A stretch of 64,000 nt of DNA, taken from positions 918 to 64,917 of the forward strand of contig JBAXSI010000018.1 in NCBI GenBank assembly GCA_037130755.1, in the 5' to 3' direction. The DNA comes from Actinomycetes bacterium. Its GTDB lineage: Bacteria > Actinomycetota > Actinomycetes > S36-B12. The notes below the pieces were generated by a model. It saw nothing but the letters and a program-made list of their open reading frames with translations, had not been told where the DNA came from and did not search any database. The translations under genes and the position numbers were made by a program. Shown in pieces: positions 17,431 through 25,789 of this stretch (its first letter is position 1; the number at the start of each line of letters is the position of its first letter).

Positions 17431-17808
17431 TCAGTCCAGCGTTATCGTGATTCCGACGTGCTTTCCGCCGCCGCCGCGCAGCTCCGTCAGCCACCCGAAG
17501 ACCTTCCCCATCAACCCGTAGCGGTGCTGGACCAAGTTGGCGGTCAGGTGCGTCGTTGTCTCGTCCTGCACGCGTGCCGTTGCCGGTAGTTGTTCGCCCG
17601 TGATCCGCCCGCGCGCGTCGCATCGGGCCACCAGGACCGACGCGTTGTTGCGGATGCGCTTCGCCTTGCCGGATTCGGCCTGGGTCAGCACGAGCAGTTC
17701 GTCGTTGCGGCGAACCAGCCATACCGGCGTCGCGACGGGCGTGCCATCTCGTCGGAACGAGGTGATGGAGACGTACTTGCCCGCGCTGAGCTCATCGATC
17801 GCGCTCAT
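17431..17808 (-). CDS. PPOX-class (pyridoxamine 5'-phosphate oxidase-like) probable F420-dependent protein
   Basis: 125 aa with KYVSITSFRRDGTPVATPVW...GKAKRIRNN, typical of the split-barrel family. Confidence 0.7.
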   Translation of the reverse strand: MSAIDELSAGKYVSITSFRRDGTPVATPVWLVRRNDELLVLTQAESGKAKRIRNNASVLVARCDARGRITGEQLPATARVQDETTTHLTANLVQHRYGLMGKVFGWLTELRGGGGKHVGITITLD

Positions 17809-17861: not shown

Positions 17862-18617
17862 CTACCGGGTGAGTAGTCGGAGCAGCGCGAGAGTGGCCTC
17901 CGAGCCGAGTCCATCATCGTCGGTGAGCGCCAGGGGCAAGCCCCGGGCCAGGTCGGTCCGCTCGACGGCCGCTCGGCGCGCGGGATCGTCCGACTGGGAG
18001 CCGCATCGCCACCACGACTTCGCGCTCAGGGTGATCCGATCCGCCACGACTGCTGCTGCGAGCTCGTCGGTCCCATCGATCAGGCATGGGGTGCGGCGCG
18101 CGGCCGCACACATGAGCACCCCCACAACGAAGGCGATCGGCAGGGCCTTCGCGCTGTCCAGGAGGGCCACCAGCTCGCCACGATGTGACGTGACGCGATT
18201 GGCGTCGTCGCGGATGCTGGTGACCTTCGCGATCCAGTCGGCATCGGTCATGCCCTCGGGCTGTGGAACCAGGGCCTGCGCATCCGAGCGGGTGAGTACG
18301 GCGATGATGGTCCGCGCGGCAATGTCATCGCGTGCGGTGACGCGTGGCACGAGGAGGTTGGCGCCGGAGTCGACCGCACTGTCGGCTGCTTGCAGGCCCG
18401 CGACCATGGCATCGCCCGCATCGAGCCAGGGTCCGCCGGCCGCGTCGACGATCGCCACGTGCGGCTCGGAGCCGCCCGCCATCGAATGCCACCAGGCCAG
18501 CAGGATCCGCAGTTCTCCTGTGACGTCGGCGGGCATCGCCTCGGTCGCCGCGGCCGGCGCCTCCATGCGCTCGGCGGCCGCGGCGATCTCGGGAGGCAGG
18601 TCGTTGGTCACGTGCAC
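17862..18617 (-). CDS. CobT-like (nicotinate-nucleotide:DMB phosphoribosyltransferase family) protein, short and apparently degenerate
   Basis: 251 aa. The C-terminal two thirds resemble CobT (LPIAFVVGVLMCAAARRTPCLIDGTDELAAAVVA ... GLGSEATLALLRLL). I cannot find the N-terminal GEMGIGNT-type motif. GTG start. Confidence 0.55.
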   Translation of the reverse strand: MHVTNDLPPEIAAAAERMEAPAAATEAMPADVTGELRILLAWWHSMAGGSEPHVAIVDAAGGPWLDAGDAMVAGLQAADSAVDSGANLLVPRVTARDDIAARTIIAVLTRSDAQALVPQPEGMTDADWIAKVTSIRDDANRVTSHRGELVALLDSAKALPIAFVVGVLMCAAARRTPCLIDGTDELAAAVVADRITLSAKSWWRCGSQSDDPARRAAVERTDLARGLPLALTDDDGLGSEATLALLRLLTR

Positions 18618-18705
18618 CCTTCGGACGATGGGGAAAGTGCGCCAAGTATGACGATTCCCGGGGGCCTTGCGATCTTCCGGAGTATGGCGACCTGCGGAGC
18701 CGGTG

Positions 18706-19515
18706 TCAGGACTGGGGGGCGAAGGCGACCGGCGCCTCGAAGGCCGCCTTGCGAGCCATGCGGCGAAGTGCCAGCAGTACTGGGCGACCGGCCACGAGGA
18801 TCAGTACGACGGCGAGCACCGCGCGCGGCACGTCGTAGCCCAGCGATGTCACGAGGCAGAACCGGAACCATGCCGCGAGATTCTCGGCGAACGGAGCACC
18901 GGCGACGAAGGAGAGCTGCGCAGGCAGGCCGGCCGAGAACGGCCAGAACCACAGGTTCATCAGGAAGCCGTAGGCCAGGCATGCGACGGCGGCATACCCG
19001 GCGAGCATCACCAGTTCGCGCCGGCCCTCGGCTCGCGGAAGGAGCCCCGCGCCGAGCCCGACCCAGGCGGCCGCGACCATCTGGAACGGCAGCCAGGGGC
19101 CGACGCCACCGGTGAGCAGCGCGGACGCGAACAGCGAGATCGACCCGAGGCAGAAGCCGAAGCCTGGACCTAGGGCCCGACCGCCGAGGATCAGGATCGC
19201 CCAGATCGGCTCGACGCCGACCGCGCCGCCGCCGAGCGGGCGCAGCGCGCAGATGACGGCGGACAGGACACCCAGCATCGCGATCGATTTGGCGTCCATG
19301 CCGCCGTCGTTGACCTGCGCGAGCACGACCAGGAGCAGCAGCGGCATCACCAAGGCGAACAGGACGGGGGCATCGGAGGAGTGGGCCGCGGCGGTCGATC
19401 CCGGCGCGGCCAGCAGTGGCCACGTGAATGCGATGATCCCGACGACCGTCACCAGGCCGATGGCCGCCTTGGACGGCAGCCCCAGCCGGACCGCGCGTCT
19501 CGTCGTGGCCGTCAT
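18706..19515 (-). CDS. ECF transporter S (substrate-capture) component
   Basis: 269 aa, polytopic and highly hydrophobic. Its ATG overlaps the ATPase stop (ATGA). Confidence 0.75.
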   Translation of the reverse strand: MTATTRRAVRLGLPSKAAIGLVTVVGIIAFTWPLLAAPGSTAAAHSSDAPVLFALVMPLLLLVVLAQVNDGGMDAKSIAMLGVLSAVICALRPLGGGAVGVEPIWAILILGGRALGPGFGFCLGSISLFASALLTGGVGPWLPFQMVAAAWVGLGAGLLPRAEGRRELVMLAGYAAVACLAYGFLMNLWFWPFSAGLPAQLSFVAGAPFAENLAAWFRFCLVTSLGYDVPRAVLAVVLILVAGRPVLLALRRMARKAAFEAPVAFAPQS

Positions 19516-21149
19516 CCGGCGGCCTCGTCAGGCTCGTCGCTCGAGTCGGCCAGTGCGGCCGACACCTGGTCGACGGTCAGCCAGGTGGCGGGGGAGAGGA
19601 TCTTCGCGACCTGCGGGGCGAACATCGGCGACGACGTCACGACGTCCAGCGTCGGGCCGTCCGCGACGATCTCGCCGTCGGCCAGGATCACCACCCGATC
19701 GGCGGCCTCCGCCACAAGTTCCACGTCGTGCGTCGCAAGAACGATCGCGTGCCCGGCCTCGGCGAGGTCGACGAGCAGGCGGGCGAACTTCGCCTTCGTC
19801 GGGTAGTCAAGGCCGCGCGTGGGCTCGTCCAGGAGCAGCAGGGGCGGGCGCGCGGCGAGGATCACGCACAGCGCGAGCAGCAGACGCTGTCCCTCCGACA
19901 GGTCGCGCGGATGCGTGCCGTCCTCGATCGCCGGTGCCATCAGCGCGAGCAGGGCGCGGGCGGTCCCGGGCTCGCAACCGGCGTCGCGGTCGGCGGCGCG
20001 GCATTCGTCGGCGACCGTGGTCGCCTCCAGCAGGTCCCCGGGCTCCTGGGGCACCAGTCCCACGGCGTGGATGAGGTCCGGGCCGGTCAGGCCGCGGGGG
20101 TCGCGGCCGCCGACGCGGACCGATCCGCCCACTCGCGGGCCCAGCCCGACGATGGCGTTGAGGAGCGTGGACTTGCCGGCGCCGTTGCGGCCCATCAGCG
20201 CGACGATCTCCCCTTCACCCACCTCGGTGGAGATCGATCGAAGGGCGGGCGTCGCGCCGTAGCGAACCGAGAGCGCGTCGGTCTGCACCAGGGCGCGTCG
20301 CTTCGTCGGCACGGGACGCAGGTGCGGGGTTCGGCCCACCAGCAGGTCGCGCAACGGCCCTGCCGCCCGGCGTGCGTCGCGGACGGAGAGCGGAAGCGGC
20401 TGCCAGCCAGCGAGCCGGCCCAGCTCGACGACCGGCGGCGCGATCGGCGCGCTGTTCATGATGTCTCTGGGCACGCCGGCCCGAAGGGGCTGACCGTCGC
20501 CGGGCACGACGATGACCTGGTCGGCGTACTGCACGACGCGCTCGAGTCGGTGCTCAGACATCACGACGGTGACGCCGAGGTCGTGGACGAGTCGCTGAAG
20601 GGCGGCGAGCACCTCTTCGGCCGCTCCTGGATCAAGGGCCGACGTGGGCTCGTCGAGGACGAGGACGCGCGGGTGCGACGTCAGGACGGCACCGATGGCC
20701 ACGCGTTGGCGCTGCCCGCCTGACAACGTCGCGAGCGGCCGACTGCGCAGATCGGCCAGGCTCAGCAGGTCGAGGGTCTCCTCGACGCGTCGGCGCATCA
20801 CGTCGGGAGCAAGTCCCAGGCACTCCATCCCGTAGGCGAGCTCGTCCTCGACCGTATCCGTGACGAAGCCGCTCATCGGATCCTGCGGCACCACGCCGAC
20901 GAGGTCCGCGAGCTCGCGCGGCGGGTGCGTCGCCGTGTCGCGGCCATCGACGATGACGCGCCCGGCGAGCGTCCCGCCGGTGAAGTGCGGCACGAGGCCG
21001 TTGATCGCTCGAAGGAGTGTCGTCTTGCCGCTGCCGGTTCGTCCCACGACGAGGACGAGTTCGCCCTCGGGTATCCGCAGGTCGACGTCGACCAGCACTG
21101 GCCTGGTCTGGCCGGGATACGTGATCGTCACGTGCTCGAAGCGGATCAT
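19512..21149 (-). CDS. ECF transporter fused ATPase (EcfA-EcfA')
   Basis: Trimmed to the ATG at 21149 (MIRFEHVTITYPG...), 545 aa. Two ABC cassettes: GRTGSGKTTLL / LSGGQRQRV and GRNGAGKSTLL / LSEGQRLLL. ATGA overlap with ecfT. Confidence 0.9.
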   Translation of the reverse strand: MIRFEHVTITYPGQTRPVLVDVDLRIPEGELVLVVGRTGSGKTTLLRAINGLVPHFTGGTLAGRVIVDGRDTATHPPRELADLVGVVPQDPMSGFVTDTVEDELAYGMECLGLAPDVMRRRVEETLDLLSLADLRSRPLATLSGGQRQRVAIGAVLTSHPRVLVLDEPTSALDPGAAEEVLAALQRLVHDLGVTVVMSEHRLERVVQYADQVIVVPGDGQPLRAGVPRDIMNSAPIAPPVVELGRLAGWQPLPLSVRDARRAAGPLRDLLVGRTPHLRPVPTKRRALVQTDALSVRYGATPALRSISTEVGEGEIVALMGRNGAGKSTLLNAIVGLGPRVGGSVRVGGRDPRGLTGPDLIHAVGLVPQEPGDLLEATTVADECRAADRDAGCEPGTARALLALMAPAIEDGTHPRDLSEGQRLLLALCVILAARPPLLLLDEPTRGLDYPTKAKFARLLVDLAEAGHAIVLATHDVELVAEAADRVVILADGEIVADGPTLDVVTSSPMFAPQVAKILSPATWLTVDQVSAALADSSDEPDEAAG

Positions 21150-22264
21150 GCGGCGGCCTGCAGGGGAGTGCGGCGCTCGACGCGTGCGGCGGTGGCGCCC
21201 GCGGGCAGGGCTGGTGCGGTGAGGGCGGGCGTCGCGGCGACGATGGCGGCGACGATCGCGACAACCGGCAGGCTCGGCCAGCCCGGCGGGCTCACGGGCG
21301 CTTGCAGGCCACTCACGTCGGACCAGGCGGCGGCCGCGAGCGACGTCGCCACGAACGCGCCGGCGAGGGCGACGAGCCATTCGGGTGCGCGCCAGGGATC
21401 GGGCCGGTAGCGCGTACGGACCGAACCGCGACCCGCCAGCACGGTGCCTGCCGTGGCCGCGAGCACGCCGACGGCGAGCATCGGCAGGCCGAGCAGTGCG
21501 GGGGAGTCGGCCGAGACCAGCCCGTAGGCCCCGATCGCAGCGGCGACGAGGCCGCCGAGGAGCAGGCCGGCACTCATGCGTCGACGCGCCGTCGGTGTGT
21601 CACCGCGCCGGCCGTAGCCGCGCGAGTCCATCGCCGCCGCCAGCGTGACGCTTCGCTCGAGGGCTCCTTCGAGCACGGGCACTGCGGCGCCCGCGATTGC
21701 CGTGAGGCCGGACGTCGCCCGGCCGCGCAGGCGTCGGGTCGCGCGCAGTCGGTCGACGTCGGCGACCAGTTGCGGGGTGAAGGTGAGGGCGACGACGACG
21801 CTGACGCCCAGTTCGTACAGCGCTGCCGGCACGCTCTTGAGCAGTCGCGTCGGAGAGGCAAGCGAGTTGGCGGCGCCGATGCAGATGAGGATCGTCGCCA
21901 GTCGAAGGCCGTCGTACACCGCCGGGAGCAGCGACTCCGCGGTCACGTCGCCGCCGAGTCGCAATCCGGCGAGCCAGGTCGGCAGCGTGAGACCGGGCAG
22001 GTGCACGAGCACGGTCGGTCCGAGCGAGGTGCCGAGGACGATCTGGACGAGCACCCGCACGACCACCACGACGATGCCGAGTCGGACGAACATCGCGAAC
22101 GAGCGGGCCCATGGTGCGTCCGGTCGTCGGGCCTGCACCACCACGGCTGCTGCGCCGATGAGCAGCAGGAGGATGAGCGGGTTCGTGGTGCGACTGGCGC
22201 CGGCGGCAAGCCCGAGTGCCCAGGCCCACCACGCACCCGGATGCAGCCAGCGGGGATCACCCAT
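21146..22264 (-). CDS. ECF transporter transmembrane component (EcfT/CbiQ family)
   Basis: Trimmed to the ATG at 22264 (MGDPRWLHPGAWWAWALGL...), 372 aa and polytopic. Overlaps the upstream gene by 8 nt. Confidence 0.8.
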   Translation of the reverse strand: MGDPRWLHPGAWWAWALGLAAGASRTTNPLILLLLIGAAAVVVQARRPDAPWARSFAMFVRLGIVVVVVRVLVQIVLGTSLGPTVLVHLPGLTLPTWLAGLRLGGDVTAESLLPAVYDGLRLATILICIGAANSLASPTRLLKSVPAALYELGVSVVVALTFTPQLVADVDRLRATRRLRGRATSGLTAIAGAAVPVLEGALERSVTLAAAMDSRGYGRRGDTPTARRRMSAGLLLGGLVAAAIGAYGLVSADSPALLGLPMLAVGVLAATAGTVLAGRGSVRTRYRPDPWRAPEWLVALAGAFVATSLAAAAWSDVSGLQAPVSPPGWPSLPVVAIVAAIVAATPALTAPALPAGATAARVERRTPLQAAA

Positions 22265-22976
22265 GGTGGTCCTCCGTGGCCCGACGTCGATAGGCGATCG
22301 AGCCCAGTGCTGCCCCCACGAGCAGGACGACGGCGACGGCGATCGTCGCCCACGGGGACCCGGAGTCGACGGGAGCTGCGGGTGCCGCGGCGGTCGTTGC
22401 GTCGGCGGAGGCGACCGCCGCGGGTGACGCGGCAGTCGCCTGCGCGACCCGCTGCGCCTCAGCATCGCCGAGGATCGGCGCACACTCGCCCTTCGGGAAG
22501 CCCGCGAGGGAGCAAATGAGCCCGCCCTCGGCGTGCACCGGCGCGATCGTCTGGAGAACCGTGGCCCCGGTCGCGTCCTTGGCGACGACGACGCACTCAG
22601 TGACGAGCGCCGGAGGGATCTGTCCCTCGGGAGCGATCGTCGTCGGACCGGAGTCGATCACCAGGCCCACACGCTTCATCCCGTCGGCGGCTGCGGTGGC
22701 GCCGCAGATCGCGGCGAAGTCCGGCGCCACGCGCGGTGTGTCCTGCCCGGTACCGGCCTGCGTGGTCACGGCGAAGCGCCAACCCTCGACGGTGCCATCG
22801 GCCGGGATCGTTGTCGCAGGTCCCTGCGTGGCGAACGCCCACGAACTCCCGCTGCCCTGCCAGTACGTCCAGTAGCGGAAAGCCGCGGCGTTCGCCGAGG
22901 GCGCTACGAACAGGCCGACCGCCAGCGTGACCAGCGCCATGGCACTGGCCCGCACAACGGTCGACCTGATTCGCAC
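22257..22976 (-). CDS. secreted, C-terminally membrane-anchored protein of unknown function (I recall this family being labelled SCO2322 family)
   Basis: 239 aa with signal peptide MRIRSTVVRASAMALVTLAVGLFVAPSANA. The mature part starts AFRYWTYWQGSGSSWAF...VEGWRF. Ala-rich linker, C-terminal TM helix WATIAVAVVLLVGAALGSIAY, then RRR. Confidence 0.7.
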   Translation of the reverse strand: MRIRSTVVRASAMALVTLAVGLFVAPSANAAAFRYWTYWQGSGSSWAFATQGPATTIPADGTVEGWRFAVTTQAGTGQDTPRVAPDFAAICGATAAADGMKRVGLVIDSGPTTIAPEGQIPPALVTECVVVAKDATGATVLQTIAPVHAEGGLICSLAGFPKGECAPILGDAEAQRVAQATAASPAAVASADATTAAAPAAPVDSGSPWATIAVAVVLLVGAALGSIAYRRRATEDHHG

Positions 22977-22978
22977 TG

Positions 22979-24070
22979 CTACTTCCTGATGCTTGCGTTG
23001 AGCGACGACACGAGGTTGACGCCGCCGAAGCTGCCCGCCTTGCTGCCGGTCGCATCAGCGACGAGCAGCAATAGCCCCAGTGCGCCGGGATCGGGCCCGC
23101 CGGAGTGCGTCGTGAAGGCCGGGGCGCTCGCCTTCAGCGCCGCCGTTGCGCGGCCGACTGCAGCGCGTCCCTTGTTCGCTCCGACGAGTGCGAGCACAGC
23201 TGCCGCGGTGTTGGCGTAGTCGGGATCGCTCCCGAACGGGGATGCCAGAGTGCCCGTCGTGGCGAGGGCCTTGGCCAGGTAGGCGGACGCCTTCGCCTTC
23301 GCGGTGTTCGCGCACGGCGCCGCGACGGCGAGCTTCCTCGGACCGCTCACAGGCAGTGTCCCGTTGATGCCGACCAGGCCCTGTGCGGTAGCGGATGCGT
23401 TGACGGCTCCGCCGCTCTGGAAGGCGAAACCGCCGCTGGACGAACAGGGCGCGGACAGTGAGCCCAGGTATCTGGTGGCCTTCTTATAGGCAGCGAAGTC
23501 GAAGCTCGGGGCCATCGACAGCATCGCGGCCAGGGACAGTCCCGTCGAGTTCGCATCGGAGGCCCCGCCTGACGTCCAGGGGAAGCCGCCGTCGGAGCCC
23601 TGCTGCTTCGTCAGCCAGTCGCCGGCCTTCACGGCGGCGTCGATCGCGCGCCCGACAAGGGTCGGGCTGGCGGAGTCATGGTCCTGCAGGGCCATCAGGG
23701 CCATCAGCGCCATAGCGGTGGAGTTGGTGTCCGGGCCGGTGAAGTTCTTCGGGTCTGGGGCCTCGCACGGCTTGCTGAGGTCGGCTCGGTAGGCCTGGAA
23801 GGAGCCGCTCGCGCACTGCTGGTCGAGCAGCCACGTGATCGCCGCTGGTGCCGGCTTGGCACCGACGGCCCCAAGGCCCAGCAGCGCGAGGGACTGGCGG
23901 TACACCCCGTCGTAGGTCGGGTCGGCGGCACCGTAGAGGCCGACGGTGGCGCTGGGAGCCGCGCTGGCGGCCGGGGCGAGGGCTGTCGATGCGAATGCCG
24001 CGCTGGCGACGACGCCGATGACGGCGATGGAACTGCTGAGCCTTCGGCGAAGGCTGGACTGCTGGGTCAT
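22979..24070 (-). CDS. secreted prenyltransferase/squalene-cyclase-repeat (alpha/alpha toroid) protein
   Basis: 363 aa with signal peptide ...AFASTALAPAASAAP. Repeated Q-x-x-x-G-x-F/W type motifs (LLDQQCASGSFQ, LTKQQGSDGGFPW, SSSGGFAFQ). First gene after the riboswitch; SD aaggaag precedes the ATG. Confidence 0.75.
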   Translation of the reverse strand: MTQQSSLRRRLSSSIAVIGVVASAAFASTALAPAASAAPSATVGLYGAADPTYDGVYRQSLALLGLGAVGAKPAPAAITWLLDQQCASGSFQAYRADLSKPCEAPDPKNFTGPDTNSTAMALMALMALQDHDSASPTLVGRAIDAAVKAGDWLTKQQGSDGGFPWTSGGASDANSTGLSLAAMLSMAPSFDFAAYKKATRYLGSLSAPCSSSGGFAFQSGGAVNASATAQGLVGINGTLPVSGPRKLAVAAPCANTAKAKASAYLAKALATTGTLASPFGSDPDYANTAAAVLALVGANKGRAAVGRATAALKASAPAFTTHSGGPDPGALGLLLLVADATGSKAGSFGGVNLVSSLNASIRK

Positions 24071-24119
24071 GGACTTCCTTGGGTGAGCGGGGCCGGACCG
24101 GTGACGCCGCGCCCCCTTC

Positions 24120-24305
24120 GACCAAAACCCCTATTGCTGAACGCAACAGGGGACGGTCGGGTGGTGACCCGAGCTCCCGTCCCGTTACCTCGACGGATGG
24201 AGCCGCTCGCGTTCGCCAGGTGCTCCGACTCACCCCACACGGGGGAACACGGTTGCGGGACAGCGCCGGGATCGCACCGGACTTCCCCTGGACGTCGAAC
24301 GAGTG
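24120..24305 (-). promoter_or_regulatory. cobalamin (B12) riboswitch
   Basis: The minus strand contains the conserved core GGGGAAGUCCGGUGCGAUCCCGGCGCUGUCCCGCAACCGUG (plus coordinates 24247..24287) and the B12 box GAGUCGGAGCACCUGG (24215..24230). It is closed by cguucg/cgaacg and ccagg/ccugg helices (24209..24300). Confidence 0.85.
24123..24151 (-). terminator. weak candidate attenuator hairpin in the riboswitch expression platform
   Basis: The minus strand reads cccct-gttgcgttcagcaat-agggg-tttt. Its 5' arm overlaps the 3' arm of a stronger 7-bp hairpin (gggacgg...ccgtccc, 24149..24182), giving mutually exclusive folds. The stem is only 5 bp. Confidence 0.3.
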
Positions 24306-24409
24306 GATTCAGTTGTGGTGCGATCCGACCATGCAGCGACCCCCGGTGTCAAAGAATGCGAGCCCGCCTTTCCCCAACGCAGGCCAGGTGACACGGAGAT
24401 ACTCCGAGG

Positions 24410-25789
24410 ATGAGCTTTCGCCCTGAGGCATACGACGGCCCGCTGGATCGCGCCAGCATCCACGCCCGCTCCTGGCTGGCGGGCCTTCCGGACCGCCGCA
24501 TCCCACCGGTCGGCGACGTCGATTCGATCGCCGCGGAACTGGGTGGGCCACTGCCGGAGGGCTCCACCGATCCCGCGGCGGTGGTCGACCTGCTTGCCCG
24601 GCATGTCGAGCCGGGGCTCATGTCCATGGGTTCGGGACGATTCTTCGGCTGGGTGATCGGTGGTGCGCTCCCGGCGGCTCTAGGGGCCGACTGGCTGGTC
24701 AGCGCCTGGGACCAGAACGCTGCGATCCGCTTCGCGACGCCGGGCGTCATCGGGGCCGAGCAGGCAGCGGCCGCCTGGCTCCTGGACCTCATGTCCCTGC
24801 CGTCCGGCGCGCAGGTGTCCTTCGTGACGGGCGGAACGACCGCCAACTTCGCCGGCTTGGCCGCCGGCCGACAGCGGGTGCTCGAGTCCGCTGGCTGGGA
24901 TCTCGACAGCGATGGGCTGGCCGGCTCCCCGCGCGTCACCGTGATCGTGGGCGCTGATCGGCACAGCTCCGTCGACATCGCGCTGCGCTACCTCGGACTC
25001 GGCGCTCCCACGCCGGTCGACGCCGACGACCAAGGGCGGATCCGACCTGAGGCCCTCGTCGCCGCACTGGAGCGCATCGACGGTCCGCTCATCGTCGCGC
25101 TGCAGGCGGGCAACCTGCACTCGGGTGCCTTTGACGCCGTCGGTGAGTGCGCCGACCTGGTGCACGATCGCGGGGGATGGGTGCACGTCGACGGCGCGTT
25201 CGGGCTCTGGGCGGCGGCCTCGCCGCGGCTGCGCGAACTCGTGCCCGGACTTGAGCGAGCCGACTCGTGGGCTACCGATGCCCACAAGTCCCTGAACACC
25301 CCCTACGACTGCGGGATCGCCATCGTTCGCGATCCCGCGGCGCTGCGGTCGGCCTTCGGGTTCAGGGCTGCCTACCTCGTCCAGTCCGAGGGTCCGGCCG
25401 ACCCCTTCGAGACGGTCCCTGAGTTCTCGCGCCGCGCCCGGGGCGTGCCCGTCTGGGCCGCCCTGCGATCGCTCGGGCGGGCCGGCGTCGCCGACCTCAT
25501 CGAAGGGTTCGTCGCCAACGCCCAGGCGATCGCGGCCGGCATCGCCGAGATCCCCGGCGCGCGGATCCTCAACGATGTCGTCTTCTCGCAGGTGTCGGTC
25601 GCTTTCGAAAGCGACGAGCGGACCCGCCTCGTCACCCAACGACTGCTGGCCGATGGCGTGACGTGGATGTCAGGGTCGAGGTGGCGGGGTCACGACGTCA
25701 TGAGGGTGTCGGTGAGCAACTGGTCGACCGATGCTCGCGACGTCCAGATGAGCATCGAGGCCGTCCGGCGTGCGGCGGGCACGGCCTAG
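24410..25789 (+). CDS. PLP-dependent decarboxylase (group II, aspartate aminotransferase fold)
   Basis: 459 aa with the PLP-lysine motif SWATDAHKSLNTPYDCG and FVTGGTTANF. Confidence 0.8.
   Translation: MSFRPEAYDGPLDRASIHARSWLAGLPDRRIPPVGDVDSIAAELGGPLPEGSTDPAAVVDLLARHVEPGLMSMGSGRFFGWVIGGALPAALGADWLVSAWDQNAAIRFATPGVIGAEQAAAAWLLDLMSLPSGAQVSFVTGGTTANFAGLAAGRQRVLESAGWDLDSDGLAGSPRVTVIVGADRHSSVDIALRYLGLGAPTPVDADDQGRIRPEALVAALERIDGPLIVALQAGNLHSGAFDAVGECADLVHDRGGWVHVDGAFGLWAAASPRLRELVPGLERADSWATDAHKSLNTPYDCGIAIVRDPAALRSAFGFRAAYLVQSEGPADPFETVPEFSRRARGVPVWAALRSLGRAGVADLIEGFVANAQAIAAGIAEIPGARILNDVVFSQVSVAFESDERTRLVTQRLLADGVTWMSGSRWRGHDVMRVSVSNWSTDARDVQMSIEAVRRAAGTA

Follow-up and report, generated by a model that had tools for sequence, protein, structure and literature searches.

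An operon in the chromosome of an uncultured actinobacterium raises the question of what an energy-coupling factor (ECF)-type ATP-binding cassette (ABC) importer transports when its genes stand behind a B12 riboswitch, and what the two exported proteins encoded ahead of the importer contribute to it. The operon lies in a stretch of 64,000 nucleotides (nt) of contig JBAXSI010000018.1 (assembly GCA_037130755.1, positions 918 to 64,917 of the forward strand), which is called the window in the following. It comprises six minus-strand genes downstream of the riboswitch, coding for a secreted alpha/alpha-toroid protein, a membrane-anchored protein of the SCO2322 family, EcfT, a fused EcfA-A', an S component and a CobT-like protein, in this order. 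The product of the operon is probably an ECF-type ABC importer of the dedicated kind (group I) that takes up corrinoids, i.e., cobalamin and/or incomplete corrinoids such as cobinamide. The computational evidence consists of the riboswitch, the ECF parts, the coupling of the genes, their conservation and their link to genes for assembly of the cobamide nucleotide loop.

Few microbes make B12 and other cobamides and many need them, so that their acquisition shapes microbial communities. The Actinomycetota include the most abundant freshwater bacteria (acI) as well as the relatives of Streptomyces, and in the literature searched the mycobacterial BacA is the only characterised actinobacterial B12 importer found. 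The original prediction for this DNA spoke of an uncharacterised system, which is true of the exported partners; the association of riboswitches with ECF modules in actinobacteria (PMC5301498) and a predicted B12-specific ECF system, CbrUVT (PMC6593275), are already in the literature.

The Operon and Its Riboswitch

Only one Rfam match exceeds the gathering score across the entire window, and it is located at the head of the operon, where a B12 riboswitch had been predicted. The match to the adenosylcobalamin (AdoCbl)/cobalamin riboswitch RF01482 (clan CL00101) covers the full length of the model at 24169..24314 on the minus strand and scores 54.9 bits (gathering score 50; E 2.5e-7). Both the B12 box and the core motif are present in the aptamer. 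The original prediction had delimited the system to positions 17862-24305; all seven elements are found where it had placed them, except that an end at 24305 truncates the aptamer by 9 nt on its 5' side.

A terminator-like hairpin followed by a U-tract (24118..24152, minus strand) separates the aptamer from the AAGGAAG ribosome-binding site and the ATG of the first gene; its stem of ten pairs, six of them G-C, is at 24152-24128, and its tail reads TTTTGG. The hairpin is also contained in the minimum-free-energy fold of the leader. One terminator-like hairpin was observed in the scan where 1.5 are expected by chance; since this count is not above chance, it is only the position of the hairpin that carries meaning. 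By this position, the hairpin is the likely candidate for an expression platform, which would work as a transcriptional OFF switch.

The importer proper is encoded by three genes on the minus strand. EcfT, the T component (21146..22264), matches PF02361, a Pfam family named CbiQ (25.4 bits, cut-off 25). The fused EcfA-EcfA' ATPase (19512..21149) contains two PF00005 ABC_tran domains, and its top NCBIfam matches are ECF_ATPase_1 and ECF_ATPase_2, with 288 and 283 bits, respectively, which is below the equivalog cut-offs of 315 and 330. The S component (18706..19515) matches PF12822 (38.3 bits, cut-off 30.7). Thus, a T component, two ATPase domains and a co-encoded S component, the constituents of an ECF-type importer, are all present.

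The genes are tightly packed. Read from the sequence, the toroid and SCO2322 genes are joined by TAGcaGTG with a 2-nt gap, the SCO2322 and EcfT genes share an 8-nt overlap, ATGGGTGA, the EcfT/EcfA-A' and EcfA-A'/S junctions are ATGA overlaps, and an 88-nt gap separates S from the CobT-like gene. When genes were called separately on the public metagenome contig containing this stretch, the identical six genes were obtained, of 363, 239, 372, 545, 269 and 249 amino acids (aa). The junctions read from the sequence are exactly those of the original prediction. The overlapping junctions suggest that the genes of the operon are translationally coupled.

Conservation of the Operon in Actinomycetota

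Related loci were collected by scanning one genome per species with a profile of the SCO2322 family, which confirmed 274 matching stretches, 80 of which were retained as loci for the counts. At 50% identity (E up to 1e-30), the SCO2322 family falls into at least 423 clusters; the operon family is widespread and the obvious candidate importer. With the exception of one probably mis-binned contig, all 80 loci are from Actinomycetota and include Nanopelagicales (the acI order), Kitasatospora, Streptomyces, Streptacidiphilus, Terrabacter and other Intrasporangiaceae, Kribbella, Marmoricola, contigs binned as Bifidobacteriaceae and many uncultured lineages. Among the 80 loci, an actinobacterial-type operon is carried by L019, labelled as an uncultured Rubrivirga sp., a Bacteroidota genus, and by L030, labelled as a metagenome-assembled genome of Bifidobacterium breve; both labels probably reflect mis-binning and not the true distribution.

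The original prediction had asked how often the exported proteins occur together with ECF genes and an upstream B12 element in other genomes, and the survey shows a tight linkage. The SCO2322 homologue is followed by EcfT in 78, by EcfA-A' in 77 and by an S component in 75 of the 80 loci, and most loci that lack an ECF gene end at a contig boundary. Of the 72 loci with upstream sequence, 67 have a cobalamin riboswitch, with one riboswitch per locus, on the strand of the operon and immediately 5' of its first gene. Of these 67, 59 were detected with a regular expression for the core motif and the B12 box and 8 more via Rfam; the regular expression and two further Rfam runs were used in place of a purpose-built covariance model. 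In loci of the Kitasatospora type (L024, L027-L029, L044, L046, L067 and L072), the riboswitches before the toroid gene escape the core-motif expression, and for most of them the match to RF00174 is confined to its core (model positions 49-166, 33-34 bits).

The toroid gene is found before the SCO2322 homologue in 47 of the 80 loci. In loci without it, e.g., in Terrabacter, Kribbella and Marmoricola, the riboswitch directly precedes the SCO2322 gene. The presence of the toroid gene in only these 47 loci makes the toroid an optional accessory, and the SCO2322-family protein the constant partner. Thus, of the two dedicated exported proteins of the original prediction, the SCO2322-family protein holds for the systems in general, while the toroid is dedicated to only part of them.

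In 48 of the 71 loci with downstream sequence, a gene for the cobamide nucleotide loop begins no more than 700 nt past S and on its strand. The genes right after S encode a metallo-beta-lactamase (MBL)-fold domain adjoining or fused with CobU, or CobU, CobT, CobS or CobT-like proteins. In Terrabacter, the order is riboswitch-SCO2322-T-AA'-S-cobU-cobS-gcvT-pepA. This operon occupies the same chromosomal position as that of the window, which lacks cobU and cobS and has the CobT-like gene between S and a gene for a PPOX-class oxidoreductase, followed by gcvT. Three Nanopelagicales loci carry the full toroid-SCO2322-ECF operon.

In 15 of the 80 loci, e.g., in L003 (12447-13776), L012, L014, L015, L020 and L025, the MBL-fold domain (PF12706) immediately precedes CobU. 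In L017 (5517-6929), a single open reading frame of 470 aa contains both the MBL domain (residues 44-226) and CobU (residues 282-459). No function is known to have been described for an MBL-fold protein that accompanies the cobinamide kinase/guanylyltransferase; within the nucleotide-loop pathway it might act as a phosphatase or as a remodelling hydrolase.

The Exported Proteins

The SCO2322-family protein of the window (239 aa; 22257..22976, minus strand) scores 158 bits against NCBIfam NF040672 (cut-off 85), and PF28005 is assigned to public copies of the protein. It is composed of a signal peptide, a Cys-rich and beta-rich ectodomain of about 140 aa, a low-complexity linker and a C-terminal transmembrane helix that is followed by RRR. 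The ectodomain contains four invariant Cys residues and conserved Trp, Arg, Lys and Asp residues, and no invariant His. An AlphaFold2 model of the protein has a mean confidence (pLDDT) of 86, and a Foldseek search of the PDB with the modelled ectodomain gave no match better than E 0.9; sequence and profile searches of the PDB gave no match either. EcfT has a C-terminal extension of about 100 aa with several hydrophobic segments at residues ~230-355, by which it exceeds a typical EcfT. The extension is a candidate docking site and could receive the transmembrane anchor of the SCO2322-family protein.

The toroid protein (363 aa; 22979..24070, minus strand) is SCO2321-like and has a signal peptide with an RRR motif and no membrane anchor. 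It matches prenyltransferase and squalene-cyclase toroid families weakly and reaches 222 bits against the NCBIfam model SCO2321_fam (NF053823, SCO2321 family membrane protein), below the cut-off of 300, over profile positions 9-353 of 405. Lacking the C-terminal segment of the SCO2321 family, the protein is a related, shorter and non-anchored form of it. The longer, membrane-anchored SCO2321 form would fit the Kitasatospora-type loci, in which the toroid and SCO2322 genes are spaced by about 350 nt. Like the SCO2322 ectodomain, the toroid proteins contain four invariant Cys; together with the signal peptides, these residues suggest that both accessory proteins are located outside the cytoplasm.

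The AlphaFold2 model of the toroid (pLDDT 88) has 12 helices. Its Foldseek matches are class II terpene cyclases, thioester domains (TED) of complement and alpha2-macroglobulin, and beta subunits of prenyltransferases (E 1e-6 to 1e-3, TM score ~0.5). Drimenyl-diphosphate synthase and squalene-hopene cyclase are matched with E 1e-6 to 1e-4 at a TM score of ~0.5, and the protein thus has the alpha/alpha-toroid fold. The catalytic DxDD motif of the cyclases is absent: the segment PDvDDTA of squalene-hopene cyclase aligns with PDtNSTA, so that DxDD is replaced by DTNS, in which N116 is invariant in 44 homologues. Because of this replacement, cyclase activity is very unlikely, and the toroid is better read as a putative binding scaffold.

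Both exported families are already named, yet functionally blank, and their folds yield no assignment. Profile and Pfam searches for DUF4430/Cobalamin_bind gave no signal for either protein. The literature searched contains no paper on the function of SCO2321-SCO2325; the one paper that names SCO2321 concerns skin delivery with an SCO2321-derived peptide. A 730-aa protein, P0411, appeared to join toroid and SCO2322 in one chain and was rejected as a fusion: its second half has its own signal peptide and its Arg-rich linker resembles an out-of-frame translation, and it is probably a frameshift or a read-through gene call.

Two loci, L021 (6739-8939) and L035 (5558-7764), contain riboswitch, toroid and SCO2322 as a stand-alone two-gene unit with no adjacent ECF genes, which makes the pair B12-linked in its own right. 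Their SCO2322 homologues are longer, at about 318 aa. In L021, cobU-cobT-cobS is encoded just upstream on the opposite strand, and the locus has the PspA, DUF3043, aldo-keto-reductase and M48 neighbours of the window; apparently, the ECF genes at this shared chromosomal position were either lost or relocated.

The stand-alone units bear on an alternative that accepts a corrinoid importer and assigns its exported proteins a role other than ligand binding, i.e., as structural, assembly or cell-envelope factors that stabilise the complex or remodel or penetrate the wall. The absence of any detected corrinoid-binding fold or motif is in line with such a role, as are the fact that the toroid fold is common to proteins handling carbohydrates or terpenoids and to thioester domains, and the dispensability of the toroid in 33 of the 80 loci. 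However, a pure ECF assembly factor would not be expected to stay under B12 control when the ECF genes are no longer adjacent, and the toroid has lost the catalytic motif of the cyclases. A non-binding role of both proteins is therefore regarded as unlikely, although it is the strongest of the alternatives considered, and a role of the exported proteins in ligand capture is preferred.

Corrinoids as the Probable Substrate

Import of corrinoids is favoured over that of cobalt or of a lower ligand because of the adjacent nucleotide-loop genes, the B12 auxotrophy reported for acI bacteria together with the operons of their order Nanopelagicales, the precedent of ECF-CbrT and the predicted CbrUVT transporter. 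Freshwater acI bacteria are unable to make B12 and were reported to have an ECF module preceded by a riboswitch (PMC5301498). ECF-CbrT imports both cobalamin and cobinamide (PMC5997447), and a dedicated B12 transporter, CbrUVT, has been predicted from genomes (PMC6593275, PMC8123684). The corrinoid system proposed in the original prediction thus gains support from an S component that is not of the CbiM/NikM type, from cobU, cobT or cobS following S, and from the acI module together with the Nanopelagicales operons. So far as computation reaches, none of the three outcomes named in the original prediction as refuting it was obtained.

Several points weigh against this assignment. Among PDB sequences, the S component matches no solved S component at E <=10, either as a single sequence or as a 20-sequence profile, a result that extends to the ECF-CbrT structure (6FNP) provided that the searched copy of the PDB includes it; its identification as CbrT or as another solved S component was rejected on this ground, and the substrate is consequently deduced from genomic context. 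B12 riboswitches also control cobalt transporters (PMC7689651), so that regulation by itself cannot separate cobalt from corrinoid. As to the exported proteins, the SCO2322 ectodomain has neither a structural relative in the PDB nor a recognisable corrinoid-binding motif, the best structural matches of the toroid are terpene cyclases and TED domains, and both proteins could act in assembly, stability or passage through the cell wall instead of ligand binding. All components are known only from their sequences, from predicted models and from their genomic context.

The CobT-family genes that directly follow S in several lineages, some of them without cobU or cobS nearby, could also be explained by import of a lower-ligand precursor such as alpha-ribazole, 5,6-dimethylbenzimidazole or another base. 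The importer would then resemble CblT, and the linkage to cobT, cobS and CobT-like genes would reflect salvage of lower ligands, for which CblT/CblS are listed beside B12 transporters in comparative genomic reconstructions (PMC8123684). In many loci, those of the Terrabacter and Kribbella types, however, S is followed first by cobU, whose product works on cobinamide, and the locus contains no cobT. Two exported proteins of ~35 kDa and ~15 kDa would also suit a large ligand better than a small base, and a B12 auxotroph without cobS, as described for acI (PMC5301498), is unable to use an imported base. Lower-ligand import is accordingly considered improbable.

The weakest alternative, an ECF importer of cobalt or nickel that provides the metal for making B12 and uses the exported proteins in the role of CbiN or NikK/NikL, can draw on the cobalt transporters under riboswitch control, on metal ECF systems as the known case with additional extracytoplasmic parts (CbiN; PMC7689651) and on the CbiQ-family match of EcfT, but is very improbable, as the S component matches the general family PF12822 only, with no CbiM/NikM family hit for it or for 20 orthologues, no CbiN-like gene is present, the neighbours are the late nucleotide-loop and salvage genes cobU, cobT and cobS and not genes for a chelatase or for ring synthesis, the operon is carried by Nanopelagicales, the order of the acI bacteria, which are reported to lack B12 synthesis and to possess the riboswitch-preceded ECF module (PMC5301498), and the SCO2322 domain has no invariant His, its conserved residues being Trp, Arg, Lys, Asp and disulfide Cys.

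Proposed Mechanism and Comparison with Known Systems

In the proposed corrinoid importer, high intracellular AdoCbl would cause the riboswitch to terminate transcription, and the operon would be expressed when B12 is scarce. The SCO2322-family protein would be held in the membrane by its C-terminal helix, with its disulfide-bonded ectodomain outside the cell, where it may serve as a capture or hand-off component that feeds the corrinoid to the S component. The secreted toroid could act as an optional additional binder or as a relay partner. The EcfT/EcfA-A' module would drive toppling of the S component and thereby import, and incomplete corrinoids could be completed by CobU, CobT and CobS where their genes adjoin the operon.

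Among the closest known systems are the B12-linked ECF-type ABC importers ECF-CbrT of Lactobacillus delbrueckii (PMC5997447) and the predicted CbrUVT (PMC6593275, PMC8123684). The operon differs from ECF-CbrT in three respects: no sequence similarity between its S component and solved CbrT can be detected, its module is dedicated and riboswitch-controlled while ECF-CbrT uses a shared group II module, and it begins with genes for one or two exported proteins, of which ECF-CbrT has none. In SEED, CbrU is annotated as a 'duplicated ATPase'; the fused EcfA-A' of this operon would correspond to such a protein.

The original prediction took ECF importers to be defined by the absence of an extracytoplasmic binding protein. 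This agrees with ECF-CbrT; extra extracytoplasmic parts do occur in cobalt ECF systems, which need CbiN (PMC7689651). CbiMNQO and NikMNQO resemble the operon as group I ECF systems under B12 or metal control, and their additional small, partly extracytoplasmic component, which helps to load S (CbiN; PMC7689651), can be likened to the accessory proteins. In contrast to CbiMNQO/NikMNQO, the operon has neither a CbiM/NikM S component nor CbiN, its accessory proteins are unrelated and much larger, and its context is corrinoid salvage and not metal insertion.

A functional parallel exists in Bacteroides, where the riboswitch-controlled surface proteins BtuG, BtuH and BtuJ capture cobamides and pass them to the transporter, and where the genes of the binders adjoin those of the transporter (PMC13616437). 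BtuG/H/J are outer-membrane lipoproteins of a diderm that serve a TonB-dependent transporter and BtuFCD, whereas the system of the window is of the ECF type, belongs to a monoderm and uses unrelated folds.

A second comparison is with carriers of the transcobalamin type. Transcobalamin, intrinsic factor and haptocorrin clamp cobalamin between an alpha6-alpha6 barrel and a small beta domain. The operon likewise encodes, in a B12 context, an alpha/alpha toroid alongside a small beta-rich domain, although as two separate polypeptides. Cobalamin carriers are absent among the 50 best toroid Foldseek matches listed and among 26 matches of the beta domain, and no sequence similarity to them was found. 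The idea of a split transcobalamin was therefore rejected, given cyclase and TED matches for the toroid and nothing better than E 0.9 for the SCO2322 domain, and is retained as an analogy only.

A bolder proposal, which is possible but on balance doubtful, is that the SCO2322-family protein, together with the toroid where present, represents the first extracytoplasmic capture module of a vitamin ECF transporter, a monoderm counterpart of BtuG/H/J and perhaps a clamp in the manner of a split transcobalamin. In this proposal, the degenerate CobT paralogues of B12-auxotrophic freshwater actinobacteria would be non-catalytic cytoplasmic acceptors that recognise the cobamide nucleotide loop. If the exported partners do bind corrinoids, they would constitute an exception to the textbook rule that vitamin ECF transport operates without an extracytoplasmic binding protein, and would add two new corrinoid-binding folds. 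The operon would be of interest to the fields of ECF transport and cobamide ecology, but the case for it is drawn from genomic context.

The CobT-Like Gene

The last gene of the operon (17862..18617, minus strand) encodes a short, degenerate paralogue of CobT. It matches PF02277 with 82.9 bits over profile positions 135-312 of 329 only, and two NCBIfam CobT models, including TIGR03160, with 63.2 and 75.2 bits over positions ~135-315, far below their cut-offs of 319 and 306. The protein shares with CobT and ArsAB the C-terminal large domain, including the RRTPxxxDG...AA segment, and differs from them by the absence of the N-terminal third (about 100-130 residues), of the phosphate loop and of the conserved catalytic Glu. 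Alignments with ArsA and with the true CobT proteins of the same loci show VPRV--xRD in place of the GxMGIGNT phosphate loop, and the position of the catalytic Glu in the LGEG(T/S)GA motif is occupied by D, A, R, S or E among 12 CobT-like orthologues. The true CobT genes of these loci retain both the loop and the Glu.

By these losses, the protein is probably not a CobT enzyme, i.e., not a phosphoribosyltransferase. The protein is nevertheless under constraint: the segment AARRTPCLIDGTDELAAA and two WW/SPDPAR motifs are strongly conserved. The family consists of about 70 clusters of 220-294 aa (most of them 235-270 aa), all from uncultured actinobacteria. The gene is the last one, after MBL-cobU, cobT and cobS, in six sister loci; in the window and five close relatives, MBL-cobU, cobT and cobS are absent and the CobT-like gene directly follows S. 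The original prediction had counted this gene as part of the system; it is not a general part, being a degenerate paralogue confined to one uncultured clade. The protein may be what remains of a former cobU-cobT-cobS cluster, and it would probably bind, and not make, a lower-ligand nucleotide or a cobamide, this binding role being a guess. The annotation "CobT" is a mis-annotation for this short paralogue, whose function is now open to a concrete test, as is that of the two NCBI "SCO" families named after a locus tag.

The 88-nt gap before the CobT-like gene contains a promoter-like site (18681..18709, minus strand; CTGACA-17-CATACT), which agrees with the consensus at 9 of 12 positions and is identified by this consensus match only. 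One such site was observed in 7.4 kb where 0.1 are expected, and the CobT-like gene may also be expressed separately.

CobT paralogues that directly follow S in Nanopelagicales-type and related loci show a graded loss of motifs. Those of L075 (5432-6571) and L079 (12804-13892) retain GxxGxGxTT and EEG, the Glu is replaced by Asp in L042 and L038, and the loop and part of the N-terminus are lost in L031 (12437-13408). In none of these five loci are cobU or cobS found near the paralogue.

Genomic Surroundings

The window represents a core chromosome region of an uncultured high-GC actinobacterium and contains qcrCAB, ctaCDE, lipAB, glnA, sucB/lpd, pepA and gcvT; the operon is thus surrounded by core respiratory genes and genes of lipoate and 2-oxoacid metabolism. 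No further B12-related genes were found among the genes called in those parts of the window that public contigs served to annotate (~1-33 kb and 34-64 kb).

Downstream of the operon, an F420-dependent PPOX-class oxidoreductase of the Rv2061 family (17431-17808, minus strand; TIGR03666, 137 bits) is encoded on the same strand. Its gene starts 53 nt past the CobT-like gene and has its own AGGAGG ribosome-binding site. It was considered as a seventh member of the operon and rejected, as none of the 80 loci contains a homologue. On the other side, a pyridoxal phosphate-dependent decarboxylase (24410-25789, plus strand; PF00282) with weak similarity to diaminobutyrate and aspartate decarboxylases is encoded divergently from the riboswitch leader. 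This neighbour is absent from 78 of the loci and is shared with the remaining two, L002 and L003, at 76-80% identity.

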